From a virus (taxonomy: Duplodnaviria > Heunggongvirae > Uroviricota > Caudoviricetes), in IMG/VR virus record IMGVR_UViG_2839594473_000016: DNA of 47,271 nt, one strand, 5' to 3'. Of the stretch, positions 27,001 to 33,000 are shown piece by piece (position 1 is the stretch's first letter; each line of letters opens with the position of its first letter). The position numbers were made by a program.

Positions 27001-30000
27001 GAGAGGGGGCGCGGTGTCCAGGGCGATCGTTTTTTTTCGCCGGATGATCCCCCCCGGGTCTGGTCACAGGCCAGTGATTCCGTCGGCCCTGAGCGTGCCA
27101 TCAGGAAGCTCAGGCAACGTCGGATCAGGCATACCACTCGCCGCTTCACTCGCTGACTTCTGGCGATGGCATTCAGTACAGAGGGTCCAGAGGTTCGTCT
27201 CCTCATTACCACCACCGAACTGAAGTGCAATGCGGTGATCGAGTTCACTGTCACAAAGGTCAACCACGCGTCTACAGAGACAACAGTGTCCGGCATCCCT
27301 CCGCCAGATACGACGTTTGAGGGAAACCCGGGCACTGCCACTGACACGACGCTGTTCCCCCCTCAGGACATTTATCCGCCGGGTGTTCAGAGTTTTGATT
27401 CTGCCCGGTAACGTACGAAGCACAGCCATGTAAAATCCTCGCCATATAGCTTGTCACCAGAGGAAAGAAAATGTCATCGAAAAACCGGCCCCGCAGAACC
27501 ACAATCCGCAATATCCGTTTCCCCAATCACATGATTGAACAGATCAATATCGCCCTTGAACATAAAGGTTCCGGTAACTTTTCAGCGTGGGTTATTGAAG
27601 CCTGCAGAAGAAGGCTGTCAACAGAGCGTTCGGGTATGAATTACATAATTAAGTAACATGGTGTTCACAGAACACACAGTTACCGGACACATCAGTTTTC
27701 CATTCGTCCCCCGGCAGTACAGGCTTCCCGTCTGACGGGATAGCCTGAAAAAACACAGAAAATTATTTGTTATAATTAATATAACTTACTCAAAAAAAAG
27801 CGACGAGAAAATCAGCATCAACGAGCAATAAGCGCCAATACGTGATAACAAATGGCAGCCATATTTATCTGCAGTATAAGCAATGGACAGGATAACCACA
27901 CCAGAAACCGTCAGCATAAAATCCATTTGAACTTCCTCGGACAAAATCGACTCATCTAAAGATTTACAGCTCTTTTTATTATCAATATGTTAAAAGTAAA
28001 ATAAACAGATGTTCAATAATACGAATACAAAAACGTGCTGAAAATCAATGAATCCATTTCTGTGTTATCAATTAATAGTGATAAACATCCGGCTTCTTCC
28101 ACCATCGCACCGGACCAGCGACCATGAGGGGACAACGCCGCGCTCCGTTAACGCGGTAAACCCCGGTGTGTATCGTTTTTGATTATCCCCGCACACTCGC
28201 GCAGAGGATTCTCCCGGTCGGGCTGCGGTCTCTGTTAATGCAGGAATACGGCGACAATACCGCGCATGAATAATAAGGTCGCTCAACACACTGGCTGTAA
28301 TGCAGCGGATACCATGCGGCATTTAGCGGCATTCATCGTACACTCAACGGTTAGCTCTTCATTCGTGGCATTCACCTGAAAGGTCCTGGAGTGTAATTGC
28401 GTACATTTACCACTGAACGAACCTTCAACAAGAACACGACCACGCTGCAAAATACGGAACGGAATTGTTCCCTGAAAAGGCTTTACGGTTACCAATAATT
28501 TCTTCATGCATTCTCCGAATAACAAAAATACTAGTTAATACACTGAGTGCGGATATATTCCTGAAGCATTCTCAATGCTGCCTGGTCGCTGATGATTCCG
28601 TCTCTGATACCGAGAACGTTTCGTCCAGCAACCGGAGAGAGTTCGACGGCGGCATCATTGCCCACGCCGGAGGTGCCGGTGGCTTCACGCACGGTACCGG
28701 GGCAGGTGGCGTTGATCCGCAGGCGCTTACGACCAGCGGCAACATCAGCACGCAGAGTTTCATTTTCAGCTCTCGCATCGGCTAATTCCCTCGAGTATTT
28801 TGCATCGAGCGCAGCAACATCACGCTGGCGCACCTGCATGTCAGTAATGGTGGCATTCGCCTGTTCCAGCTCTCTGGCTTTTTTATCGCGCTGCGCTTTG
28901 TAGGTGAGCGCGTTGTCACGGTAATGGTTTGTTGCCAGCCACAGCGCACCACAGCCAACCGCCATGACAATAATCACCACACACAGAACACGGTTCATCT
29001 CTCTTTCACCCCACCAGTCCCGATAACGTCAGGACTCGCCAGGCGGTGGAAAAGAAAATGGCAACCAGCATGACTAAAAATGAAATGCCGACAAGTACAC
29101 AGAGGCTCTTCACCAGCGTTATGAGTTTATCTGATATCATTAGCCACCCCATCAATCCGCCTTTGTTATTTTCCCTTTGCCTGTATCAGCCAGGACAAAA
29201 TCAATCAGCATATTCGCTTCATTTACCAGCGTACGGATTTTTGATACATGCGCGGCTTTAACCTGTTTCCACTCATTCAGCCCGGTAGCAAACACACTGG
29301 CAATGTTTTTATCCCGTTTCATGTCAGCACAAGCCTGGTTGAGTTCTTCCATCACGCTCATTTTACGGGGATTAACGACAAAACCCTTCGTCCAGTACTC
29401 GTAAAGAACATCGTCGCACTCTTCCTGATACCGGATGACCTTATCGCGGATTTCGGGTTTTACTTTGTTGGGATTAATGGTTTGTAGCCAGCCGGCAAGT
29501 TTTCGAAGTGGCATGGACACCATATTGCGTTGTTTCCCATCCTCAGCAACCATAACGATTTCCGTTATAGTTGACGCAAAACGCTGTCTTAACTTAGCCA
29601 ACTGTGATTGCCAGGCCAGCCCCATCCCCGCAACGACAGGTTTCATGGGAACGTATGGTTCGCCATTATGGTTAACTACATAAAGAGAGTTGCCGTGAAA
29701 CGGCACGGCCATCATATTCATCGGTTATTTCCTTTTAGTGATGAACCTTGTCTCACAGGAATCCAGCCCACAGAAAGGCACCGACAGCCAAACCGGTATC
29801 CTCAAGGGTCATCCTGAAAGGTTCTGTGTTGTGAGATGCGCGTGAGATGCGCAGAAATGACAAAGGCATCATTACGGTGCCTGAGTGTTAAACAACTGTT
29901 TTGACTTTATTCACTTACATTTTGCCAATTTGCAGGATTTCGTGTTATCCGTCCATGTAAGCAAACCTCATTTTTCAGCAAAATATTCTGCTTATCTGTC

Positions 30001-33000
30001 GATTCCCCAGCACGCCAGCGCGCTCTCCTGGTCACGACGGGATACCTGACCGTAACAGTTATTTGAGCGAATACGGCAGTCCCTGCCACCGTCCTTAATC
30101 CACCAGCGAATAGCTTCGCAGGCACCTTTTCGATCTCCTGCATTAATCCGTCTGTAAAACGTCGACGGGAAACACTTACCGGGGCCAATGTTGTACGGAC
30201 AGAATGACGCAATCCCCGCTTTCTGGGGTTCGGTCAGTGGCACTCTGATGTTTTTCTCCACCCATGCCAGCGCCTTATCACGCTCAATGGCGTTAACCCG
30301 GTCGCATTTTTCCTTCGACAGCTTCATGCCAGGAATAACAGGCTTACCATCCACCCGGGTGGCTCCACGGCAGATGGTCCAGATACCCGCACCATCACGG
30401 TATGCTGTGGTGTGGTTACCTTCCTTTTCATCCAGAAACTGGTCGAGGATTTCAGGCGCAGACGCCCCTGCACCAATCAGCGCCAGAACGGCAGCCGACA
30501 GGCCGTATCTGATTTTTGCGTTCATGGATATTTATCAGGGTTTATCGATTTCAAATCCCTGGATATGTTAAGTCTTCAGGCCAGCGGTGGAGTCTTCAGA
30601 GAACCCGTAATTATTCCCGGTAGTTTTCCTCTGTAGGTTATCAACACATCCTGCGCCTCTAAAATTACGGGACGCTTTTCCGGTAACGGACCATCCCCTT
30701 CACATAACCCGGCAGCAACATCCATGAAAAACTGCTTCGCCTGCTTTTTCGCCTCAGCTTCGTAAAACTCCAGCGTGGCACCTTCAGTACGGTCAAGACT
30801 AATCGCCACATCTGGCAACAACAGTGACGGATACCCACCAATTTCCAGTGCCACAGTAACAGTAATCTTATCCGGGTAATTATTTATCCCTTTAACAACC
30901 AGTTCGTATTTTTTCTTCATCGCTTTACTCTCCCCGCGCCGCCTTACGACGGTCCTCTCTGATTTTGAAATACAGGTTAGTCAGATACGTCAGCAGGCCA
31001 AACAGCAGACTCCCCAGCACACCTATCGCCACCCACTGGGACGGAGAGACTTTGTCCAGCAGCTGCAGTAACCAGTATCCCGTCCCCACCGCTGACGTGG
31101 TGTATGACACACCCGTTGTGATTTTTTCCATCTGGTACATACCCCGTCTCCCGCAATCCGGAAGCTCACAACAACAGGAGGGGCATCAGCTCACACCGAC
31201 AGCCCCTGCGTATGGTTACATCATCATTTCGCCGCCAGGCTGAGGCTCACTGCTACCGTCAGGCTGAGACACAACGCCATCTGAAACAGCACTGTCACCC
31301 GCGCCGTCTTCAGGCTCAGGAGCAGCCGGTCCCCCCAGCAGCTCATCCAGAATGGCATCCACTTCAGCATCAAGACGCGCCTCAAGATTCTGGCGGAGTT
31401 GCTGTTTCAGTGCGCTTCTGACTTCTTCAGAGCGCAGGACGTCCTTCACTGCTTCAGCAGTGACCAGAGATTTTATTTCTGACATGGGATTTTCTCGTTG
31501 AAAGGTGTTGTTAAGAAAGTTGCTACGAAATGAGAGGCTCTTCGGGTTTTGTTCCGGCTGACTGGCTGGCGCTGATTTTTTCCGCCGCCGCGGCATCAAT
31601 CTTTTTGCGTATATAGTTCCGGATAACCTTATACCCGCCACTTACCAGATATAACGTGCACACCACCGTGCAGAAATACAATAAAATAAGCTGTACAAAT
31701 CTCATTATCCCTCCCGGTTATTGATATGGTGTTGACATCGTTAATACCTGTTGGTTAAAAAAGTGTCCTGCATGTTTTGCTTTGGATATAACGACATTTG
31801 CCGCCGGTTCTGGCTCCTTGTTTTCCCTGCCCCGGCGGCCTTTTTTTCCTGCTTACGGGTTATTCACTTCCACTGTTATACTTTCAATCAGCACCGGATA
31901 TGTCGCACCGCTAGTGATATCGGTCACGCGCAATTTGTCTGCCGTAAACGTGCCGACCGGTGACTGTGACAGCATGAACGGCGTCCCGTCCTTACCATCA
32001 ATGACCGGCGTCACCTCAATACTGTTGTTACCGGCAAAACGGAAGCCCAGCGTATGCCATTCGTTATCAAATGCGCCGAATGACCCCAGCTTCGTGTTCT
32101 GACCAGCATTTCCCTTGTGGTACATCACATTAAGGTCTGTGGCATCGCTCTGTACGTAAAACGACGCCAGCAGGTTATGACCGGCATTACCTTCCAGTGT
32201 GACGCCCTGAGGCAGTGAAGAAACCGGCCAGTACAGCGCCAGTGCGTACTGATTAGCTGTCAGTGTGCCATCAACTTTAAAACGACAACTGATAAGCCCG
32301 CCCTTCTCCAGCAGGTCTGCGCCATTACCGGCATCATGCTGCATAAACCACGAGGAACTTCCTGTCTGTTTGGTCCACCTCAGCGCCTTACCTCCTGCAG
32401 CACCTGCATCATCAACTACCAATGCACGCCCTCCTTCAGCTCCCCATCCCTGCGGATTCAGTAAACCACCTGACTCTGTTGCACGGTAATAAAGCAGCGT
32501 TGTCACTGATTTCCCGTCCGTTGACGGTGTTGATGGTGTGTCCGGTGACGGCTTCTCATCCGGCGGCATCACAACCTGTTCCCCACCCACCAGTTCAGCC
32601 GTCCGTCCTGCATGGAGAAGAATCGCTGAGGCAAGACGGTCAGAAATAATCCCCCTGCGTGCCCATGAGCTGAAATGGCTCGCACGGTCTGCTGACGTCC
32701 AGTTTGCCGACGTCCGGGAGGCCGCACCGTAATATCCTGATGCCGGAATATCCGGGTCTTCTTCCGGTTTGTTCGTCGGGACATTTGCTCCGTTCTCATC
32801 GGTCATGAACGGCACAAAGTGAATATTCTTTTCCGTTTTGTTTTTGTAACTGCCGTACACCGTCTGGTAAGTGGATTCGCTCTTCTGCTTCCAGAAATAA
32901 GTTGTGTCTCCACATATCCAGGGAACACCGTCAGCAGAACCACCAGCGCACTGTCCCACCATATCTGCAAGGTCCGTACGATATTGTTCCACTACTTCTG

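Follow-up and report, generated by a model that had tools for sequence, protein, structure and literature searches.

What are additional genes doing inside a phage lysis cassette, and does the cassette depend on them? The question is raised by IMGVR_UViG_2839594473_000016, a Caudoviricetes virus record of 47,271 nucleotides (nt); this whole stretch is the window of the present report, and all coordinates refer to its positions. Its lysis-region genes, all on the minus strand, follow the order holin, YdfR-type gene, endolysin, Ant-like gene, a 48-amino-acid (48-aa) open reading frame (ORF) and Rz/Rz1. A first-pass annotation had proposed that the YdfR-type and Ant-like genes might modulate lysis timing or prophage cross-talk, an idea that is so far unsupported, the two genes being absent from many cassettes with the same endolysin. 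The reading preferred here, to which we give a probability of about 0.6, is that the region is a lambdoid late-operon lysis module with optional cargo in two recombination-prone slots, and that part of this cargo is a leader-gated unit of the Bro network.

The module is likely to belong to a late operon downstream of Q, to judge from the order of its genes and their orientation, which is that of Q. By homology, a pinholin of the S21 family would depolarise the inner membrane, a GH24 lysozyme of the signal-anchor-release (SAR) type would then be released and activated, and the Rz/Rz1 spanin would disrupt the outer membrane. Slot 1, between holin and endolysin, is taken by a gene of 114 aa, a short form within the YdfR family, which is modular. 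Slot 2, between endolysin and Rz, contains a portable RNA leader with a 189-aa Bro-network gene and then a coupled 48-aa membrane ORF adjoining Rz. The 189-aa protein seems to keep only a Bro-N/KilA-N-like N-domain, joined to a coiled coil, and its translation is probably blocked until the leader is opened or cut, for which RNase III-type processing of the long hairpin and a trans-acting factor are the candidates.

Interchangeable cargo on both sides of the endolysin gene

Eighty IMG/VR loci with an endolysin at least 94% identical to that of the window were surveyed by mapping the six proteins onto them; both flanks of the holin-endolysin slot are present in 76, and the endolysin-Rz slot was scored in 72. 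The holin-endolysin slot is only 7 nt long in seven loci; a further 49 have a YdfR-family gene there, of differing lengths, and the remaining 20 have unrelated inserts of 0.6-3.3 kb. The endolysin-Rz slot measures at least 300 nt in every locus. It contains the 189-aa Ant-like gene in 16 of the 72 loci, each time together with the 48-aa ORF, and lacks it in 56; by tblastn, an ORF of the 48-aa type is present in 44, including 28 without the Ant-like gene. All nine endolysin-Rz slots that were read for ORFs have at least one small single-pass membrane ORF directly before Rz, assigned to PHROGs 4906, 6632, 1115 or 4493, and sometimes two or three of these lie in tandem. The 3' flank of the endolysin gene is common to all related cassettes compared and the cargo diverges from there, with the blastn breakpoint at 29898 in six of the seven loci compared; in the seventh (L065) homology extends to 29717. 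Some E. coli loci carry a 231-aa ANT/KilAC gene that replaces the Ant-like gene at the identical start codon. Because both slots hold interchangeable cargo alongside the same endolysin allele, the extras are optional and the cassette needs none of them.

Some of the individual inserts may be recorded here. Examples of the small membrane ORFs before Rz, seen in loci L013 to L092, are those at 4658-4831 in L022, 4658-4873 in L031 and 1489-1701 in L035. A gene for a Dam-like D12-class adenine methyltransferase lies between the 48-aa ORF and Rz in L038 (2953-3720), and the slot before Rz therefore accepts cargo freely. The 3.3-kb holin-endolysin insert of L044 (685-4000) consists of internally repeated sequence with no clear ORFs.

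A consensus scan of the minus strand over 28300-31800 found no promoter-like site and no promoter-terminator pair around any inserted gene, so that none of the extras has the layout of a moron; this fits their co-transcription with the late operon. Three terminator-like sites were seen near the Ant-like gene, two within its 5' end and one within the leader, and the minus strand of the spacer before the leader motif has no sigma-70 or terminator consensus.

The preference of the Ant-like gene for endolysin genes is not confined to cassettes of this kind. A gene of about 188 aa adjoins the lysis cassette in about ten genera, most often directly 3' of the endolysin gene, as in E. coli, Enterobacter, Hamiltonella, Salmonella (L097), Providencia, Arsenophonus, three species of Xenorhabdus, two species of Proteus and two loci of Serratia. 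The endolysins that precede it are unrelated (GH24, GH108 and an unclassified family of 133-139 aa, with the Providencia enzyme giving only sub-threshold matches to M15_4/VanY), and the holins and spanins belong to different families, a spanin gene coming next in the majority of cases. Other placements are just downstream of the spanin, as in Photorhabdus and Symbiopectobacterium, and just upstream of the holin, as in one Salmonella prophage; no lysis cassette is near the gene in only a handful of cases (Thorsellia, a degenerate Sodalis region and two other architectures). This recurrent endolysin-adjacent position across non-homologous cassettes is a new result; no published account of Bro-network genes recurring between endolysin and spanin genes was found. 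Together with the small ORFs before Rz, it suggests accessory functions of lysis cassettes that have been overlooked.

Could the extras tune the timing of pinholin/SAR lysis? The YdfR-type protein might serve as a cytoplasmic partner of the basic C-terminus of the holin, the 48-aa protein as an antiholin or SAR-release factor, and the Ant-like protein as a late regulator. The genes are embedded in the cassette and co-oriented with it: the YdfR-type gene starts 4 nt past the holin stop codon, and the 48-aa ORF, whose ATG overlaps the TGA of the Ant-like gene, ends 7 nt short of the ATG of Rz. The small membrane ORF before Rz in all nine slots read, the minimum length of that slot and the endolysin-side position that the Ant-like gene keeps across non-homologous cassettes would suit such a role, and the GenBank note on ant of phage 933W, 'possible regulation of host cell lysis', makes the same suggestion. 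However, many cassettes with the same holin and endolysin do without the YdfR-type and Ant-like genes, neither of these proteins has a membrane segment, and the PHROG, PDB and Foldseek searches gave no homologue with a demonstrated role in lysis. Tuning of lysis by one or more of the extras is thus unlikely, a timing role being possible mainly for the membrane ORF that adjoins Rz.

The cassette has been seen before. Over a stretch of 2.9 kb there is 100% identity with prophage Sp6 of E. coli O157:H7 Sakai, and the same is true of many further O157 genomes; at least 80% of this stretch is present in 563 of 5,426 complete E. coli genomes. The Sakai annotation covers every lysis-region ORF named here, the 48-aa one included (ECs_5713). 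Phage BP-4795 has the whole S-ydfR-R-ant-48aa-Rz order at ~98% identity, and 933W has the order S-R-ant-Rz-Rz1-bor. Given the annotation of Sp6 and BP-4795 and the 933W note on ant, neither the arrangement nor the idea of lysis regulation is new; what is added here is the third ORF, the two cargo slots and the mis-naming of 'Ant'.

The genes named by the first-pass annotation are all present on the minus strand, as ORFs with Pfam and PHROG matches. The span that it gave for the cassette, 28999-30925, takes in only the inner part, with the holin and Rz just outside, and its two inserted genes are real, although a third ORF and an RNA element had been overlooked (Table 1).

Table 1. Positions in the window of the lysis genes, the parts of the RNA leader and the separate ant module
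Feature	Position	Strand	Evidence
S21-family class II holin (predicted pinholin), 71 aa	30925-31140	-	PF04971, PHROG holin families, EssD identity
YdfR/DUF1327-family gene, 114 aa, holin-endolysin slot	30576-30920	-	PF07041 E 1.7e-46, phrog_406
SAR-type GH24 endolysin, 177 aa	29992-30525	-	PF00959, matches to R21 lysozyme 3hde/3hdf and RrrD 4zpu
Conserved 3' flank of endolysin gene	29898-29991	-	blastn breakpoints among related cassettes
Structured RNA leader, ~131 nt, ending at Ant-like start codon	29722-29852	-	covariation, covariance model R1
Leader, P1 hairpin	29852-29838	-	
Leader, pseudoknot 5' strand CACAGAA	29828-29822	-	
Leader, anti-Shine-Dalgarno CCUUU	29821-29817	-	
Leader, long bipartite stem	29816-29737	-	
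Leader, pseudoknot 3' strand UUCUGUG, then GGGC	29775-29769	-	
Leader, Shine-Dalgarno AAAGGA	29735-29730	-	
Ant-like Bro-network gene, 189 aa	29152-29721	-	P22_AR_N E 1.4e-45, ORF11CD3 E 5.5e-06
48-aa single-pass membrane ORF (ECs_5713)	29006-29152	-	phrog_4906 E 5.4e-30, Sakai/BP-4795 annotation, hydropathy
Rz i-spanin, 155 aa	28531-28998	-	PF03245 E 1.5e-39, phrog_13
Rz1 o-spanin lipoprotein, embedded in +1 frame of Rz	28572-28778	-	PF06085 E 6.9e-21, ECs_1535, RzoD alignment
immI-like ant, 292 aa	9517-10395	-	N-terminus Bro-N-like by eye
sar antisense RNA	10397-10463	+	RF00262, 66.7 bits
Arc/Mnt-like ORF, 84 aa	10918-11172	+	beside 292-aa ant

A structured RNA leader before the Ant-like gene

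The spacer from the endolysin to the Ant-like gene is 270 nt long and contains a conserved structured RNA. The 130 nt upstream of the start codon can be aligned across genera, and compensatory changes are evident. When 16 leaders from 10 genera are aligned by MAFFT on sequence alone, the consensus comprises a 5' hairpin followed by a long bipartite stem. Here 84.7% of cells are paired, as against 37-52% when the partners are slid by 1-3 columns, and both sides change in 22 of the 35 pairs; the observed values were reached by none of 500 shuffles. A model-based alignment, which is biased towards the model structure, has compensatory changes in 30 of the 35. These two alignments were used because a larger MAFFT alignment, of 29 diverse leaders, had too poor a register to yield a consensus fold. 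Six leaders folded singly share the architecture (z = -1.3 in E. coli, -1.4 in Salmonella L011 and -3.4 to -6.7 in the other four), and the frequent G-U pairs are compatible with the sense strand only. A protein-coding origin of the conservation was rejected on account of non-triplet indels, the compensatory changes and, in the window copy, a stop after eight codons.

The leader also contains a covarying pseudoknot. Of 31 distinct sequences, 30 have a linker that can pair with the 3' part of the apical loop over 6-8 base pairs (bp), and at least ten different helix sequences occur, such as CACAGAG/CUCUGUG, CAUCGAG/UUCGAUG, UCAUGAG/CUCAUGG and CCAUAGAG/CUCUAUGG. A helix of at least 6 bp arises in 16% of controls that combine linkers and loops from different sequences and in 6% of those with shuffled linkers. 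Complementarity and its controls were scored sequence by sequence, as a column-wise test on the MAFFT alignment failed with the linker out of register.

At the foot of the structure, CCUUU pairs with AAAGG of the ribosome-binding site, which places the Shine-Dalgarno (SD) sequence within the covarying basal helix in most sequences. Translation is probably held off because the ribosome-binding site sits in this basal stem. Hairpins processed by RNase III unmask ribosome-binding sites in the lambda N leader and at intercistronic sites of T7. The leader resembles them in being a long irregular hairpin in a polycistronic phage mRNA with the downstream SD at its base, and differs in its additional 5' hairpin and loop-linker pseudoknot. 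The hairpin, of ~35 bp with internal loops and with a near-invariant GGGC adjoining the pseudoknot, is well above a simple SD-masking hairpin in complexity. It might thus be something other than a translational gate: an RNase III processing or mRNA-stability signal, a riboregulator that binds a ligand or protein, or a self-cleaving RNA. However, it matches no known ribozyme or riboswitch model in Rfam, the SD lies within the covarying helix in most sequences and the motif always terminates at the start codon; we consider such a role somewhat unlikely, and prefer the translational gate.

The distribution of the leader points to a portable element. Its covariance model has a single match in the window, of 91.5 bits; the genome loci gave 35 matches and the E. 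coli and IMG/VR loci 43, and all of these end at a start codon. Apart from the weak matches described below, only Bro-network genes stand behind the leader: Ant-like genes, KilA-N genes of 165-242 aa, Rha genes of 180-229 aa and ANT/KilAC genes of 231 aa, whereas P22-type ant loci that share only the N-domain mostly lack the motif. It occurs in 305 phage records, including 933W (26723-26854, just before ant) and the O104:H4 phage P13374, and in SPN9CC, a phage like P22, the gene behind it is a 'transcriptional regulator' immediately past the spanin. Rfam 15 has no match to the leader, either in the window region (E<=1) or in six other loci, and full-text literature searches found neither a description of it nor a shared structured 5' leader of Bro-network genes. 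A leader common to Bro-network genes at lysis cassettes may be new.

Weak matches to the leader model (36-42 bits, GC ~0.6) also occur before a 143-aa gene that looks TerB-like by eye, at 347-474 in L022, 51-178 in L019, 1405-1534 in L068 and 215-342 in L060. Only short remnants of this TerB-like gene are annotated in the window (ECs_5711/5712), where the model finds no leader.

Several points weigh against a leader-gated unit in a cargo slot. The E. coli leader folds barely better than its shuffles, though its score against the model is full-length, and the covarying structure was tested on the alignment from which it was derived. Computed SD accessibility fails to separate leader-bearing genes from controls, and the argument for masking is therefore that from the covarying basal helix alone. 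The endolysin-side position of the Ant-like gene could be a tolerated insertion site rather than a functional link, and the 114-aa form of YdfR may be a remnant of truncation.

The proteins of the two slots

Hidden Markov models assign both inserted proteins to families. The 114-aa protein scores 156.8 bits against PF07041 and is 47% identical to K-12 YdfR across residues 1-74; the position of its gene between an S21-type holin and a lysozyme matches that of ydfR in Qin. The YdfR family is modular, with an N-domain (residues 1-74), a middle part and an optional coiled coil and C-domain. The C-terminal part can also stand alone, as a gene of 186 aa, and in phrog_1085 (296 aa) the two are fused. 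The window protein is a short form, its relatives being 162-265 aa and up to 296 aa long. Its AlphaFold2 model has a three-strand sheet and a helix in residues 1-73 (block-mean predicted local distance difference test score 72-91), followed by a disordered tail. Sequence search of the PDB found nothing, and Foldseek had no PDB match at E<=0.001; weak, non-significant fold matches to double-stranded RNA-binding domains and to Mgm101 are treated as hints.

Two-hybrid and co-purification experiments showed binding of K-12 YdfR to the N-terminal half of RNase E (PMC13232886, 2026). Residues 1-72 were sufficient, and DNase-resistant nucleic acid co-purified (PMC13232886). A YdfR-type protein might thus target host RNA metabolism, by binding to the catalytic half of RNase E, and possibly to RNA, and so change the fate of the late transcript, an idea compatible with the cargo reading. 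The identity of the window protein to YdfR covers exactly the RNase E-binding region, and the weak resemblance to double-stranded RNA-binding domains leans the same way. However, overproduced K-12 YdfR altered few transcripts, and the authors could not rule out that a contaminant was the RNA binder (PMC13232886). Moreover, the fold matches are not significant and the binding data concern the K-12 protein only, which leaves this function improbable for the window protein. Literature searches on ydfR/DUF1327, the domain names, antirepressors in lysis cassettes and prophage small RNAs (sRNAs) found no functional study of the genes treated here.

The 48-aa ORF, which from its overlap with the Ant-like gene is proposed to be translationally coupled to it, keeps its length in 17 variants down to 69% identity, with conservative substitutions.

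The 189-aa protein had been described as antirepressor-like. This description holds only for the N-terminal domain, P22_AR_N; PHROG 524, 'anti-repressor Ant', is also matched. The description does not extend to the rest of the protein: P22_AR_C is absent, with an ORF11CD3 coiled coil in place of the C-domain, and the length is well below the ~300 aa of P22 Ant. No Rfam match was found over 28300-31800, and thus no sar beside the gene, and no arc/mnt regulator is nearby either. A P22 immI-like module with these components is located elsewhere in the window, among tail genes (9517-11172). Given the absence of P22_AR_C and the sar-regulated ant at this other site, the 189-aa protein does not appear from its domains to be a P22-type antirepressor, and that label is not justified.

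P22_AR_N and ORF11CD3 are both listed among the domains of the shuffling 'Bro network' (PMC10111431). The occurrence of the same leader before KilA-N, Rha and KilAC genes adds to the likeness. The AlphaFold2 model consists of an N-domain of mixed alpha/beta type and a helix of 58 residues, and against BFVD the N-domain has 39 matches at E<=1e-3, to predicted structures of Ant-N, Bro-N, KilA-N and 'repressor domain' proteins. Bro-N/KilA-N domains are generally regarded as DNA-binding. Sequence matches in the PDB are at chance level only (E 0.017 and 0.22), and Foldseek against the PDB gave none at E<=0.001, the weak matches to Mbp1, Ski and DdrC being only hints.

The 189-aa protein might nevertheless act as an antirepressor on CI-type repressors of its own or co-resident prophages, and so lock in or spread induction. 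Its P22_AR_N match is strong, and each O157 genome has 11-14 places that match the 2.9-kb query, so that a cell contains many related prophages. Such a protein would, however, have to work without P22_AR_C and some 110 residues of P22 Ant, and outside the sar/arc/mnt control that accompanies the 292-aa gene. It would be expressed from the late operon, after the lytic decision. Its leader is mostly absent from the P22-type ant loci that share only its N-domain, and its fold resembles that of domains generally regarded as DNA-binding. Antirepressor activity is very unlikely on these grounds, and cross-talk of this kind is less likely than a role in lysis timing.

Are the extras simply decaying or neutral passengers of a defective prophage? 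Sp6 contains insertion sequence elements and pseudogenes, and the 114-aa protein corresponds to the N-terminal part of much longer proteins in a family that also exists in other lengths and as a separate C-terminal gene. However, the Ant-like family, ~188 aa at 60-94% identity across Enterobacterales, keeps a constant length and 34 invariant columns in 66 sequences drawn from many genera. Substitutions in the 48-aa ORF are conservative, the leader has compensatory changes, and the same genes are present in the inducible phages BP-4795 and 933W. A complete lack of current function therefore has little probability, and optional cargo remains the preferred account of these genes.

The core lysis machinery and its relatives

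The lysis proteins proper fit the phage 21 type. The pinholin class makes small heptameric pinholes, which depolarise the membrane without passage of endolysin. The holin scores 112.3 bits against PF04971 'P21 holin S' (cut-off 26) and is 79% identical to both EssD and EssQ of K-12. Its sole strong hydropathy peak lies at residues ~33-58, and residues ~7-28 are rich in Gly, Ser, Thr and Ala and below threshold; at the sequence level this is the two-segment pattern of a weakly hydrophobic first and a strongly hydrophobic second segment. The first-pass annotation was correct in calling the holin S21-like and in noting two Met codons at its start, but the Lys of the MKSM start of S21 and EssD is absent: the protein begins MYQMEK, and neither Lys nor Arg separates Met1 from Met4. 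Among 71 close relatives Met1 is replaced by Ile in 14, and only one has a basic residue between the two positions. The defining feature of a dual-start antiholin thus seems to be missing from this holin.

The endolysin matches PF00959 with E 1.5e-24 and, by phmmer, the solved R21 lysozyme 3hde with E 6.5e-18. This alignment starts from residue 9 and therefore includes the N-terminal segment. The segment, GLSAAVLALIGAGASAP, is weakly hydrophobic, consists of Gly, Ala, Ser and Thr to 65% and aligns with the SAR segment of 3hde, whilst E35, D44 and T50 align with the Glu-Asp-Thr catalytic triad of R21; homology thus bears out the signal-anchor-release N-terminus claimed earlier. Residues 1-50 have no Cys of the kind used in P1 Lyz-type SAR control, the first Cys being C52. 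Rz is 54% identical to RzpD of K-12 and has a membrane segment at residues 1-25 by hydropathy. With the lipobox LVVSAC of Rz1, the pair has the form of an embedded two-component spanin. From these homologies we infer a pinholin/SAR mechanism of lysis, and surveys of Shiga toxin (Stx) phages class cassettes of this type as pinholin plus SAR endolysin (PMC8136144, PMC10462455).

Comparison with known cassettes brings out what is particular to this one. Phage 21 and DLP12 share with it the Pfam family of the holin, a SAR-like endolysin with the E-D-T triad, an embedded Rz1 and, in RzpD, a similar Rz. In DLP12, however, essD and rrrD share a base and rrrD and rzpD overlap by 4 nt, with no inserts; the window endolysin is only 33% identical to RrrD, and the holin lacks the N-terminal Lys found in both. 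The essQ-ydfR-rrrQ segment of K-12 Qin is closer, with a YdfR-family gene flanked by an S21-type holin and by RrrQ, a lysozyme of 177 aa with 90% identity to the window endolysin. Qin differs in its DUF2514 spanin, in having no endolysin-spanin gap and in lacking an Ant-like gene, a small membrane ORF and a leader; the covariance model has no match in the Qin locus. Phage 933W has R-ant-Rz with the same leader but no YdfR gene. Unlike the Stx phages, the prophage in the window has no stx genes, and it keeps a nanS-p esterase gene upstream.

Other RNA elements lie further away. An Rfam match to STnc100 (94 bits, 33931-34097, minus strand) is found just upstream of the 645-aa nanS-p gene. Its position suggests, by comparison with StxS of Stx phages (PMC7547250), a short late-promoter RNA made before Q antitermination. 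The interval from nanS-p to the holin (31141-31850) contains ORFs of DUF1378 (60 aa) and DUF826; according to a 2026 preprint, related prophages have the sRNAs PasA and PasC in this esterase-holin interval, which is not where the leader lies. Further Rfam matches are to the sok antitoxin RNA (114 bits, 37721-37895, minus strand), beside a hok/mok-type gene, and to the ALIL frameshift pseudoknot (118 bits, 16144-16260, minus strand).

The cassette itself is ordinary, an annotated part of a well-studied pathogen genome with the layout of reference Stx phages. Its leader may represent an undescribed class of cis-acting phage RNA, built of a 5' hairpin, a bipartite stem that holds the ribosome-binding site and a pseudoknot, and portable for Bro-network genes (Ant-like, KilA-N, Rha and KilAC) in or beside the lysis cassettes of Enterobacterales. 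Late gating by processing or by a trans-acting factor would then, with the membrane ORFs before Rz, form an unrecognised regulatory layer of pinholin/SAR lysis, a tentative proposal that we put at a little under even chances. The published interaction of K-12 YdfR with RNase E is a further lead that can be tested. The extras matter because the late operon that they occupy also drives the release of Shiga toxin in sister phages, and the leader provides a testable handle on the control of Bro-family genes, which are among the commonest unexplained genes of temperate phages.

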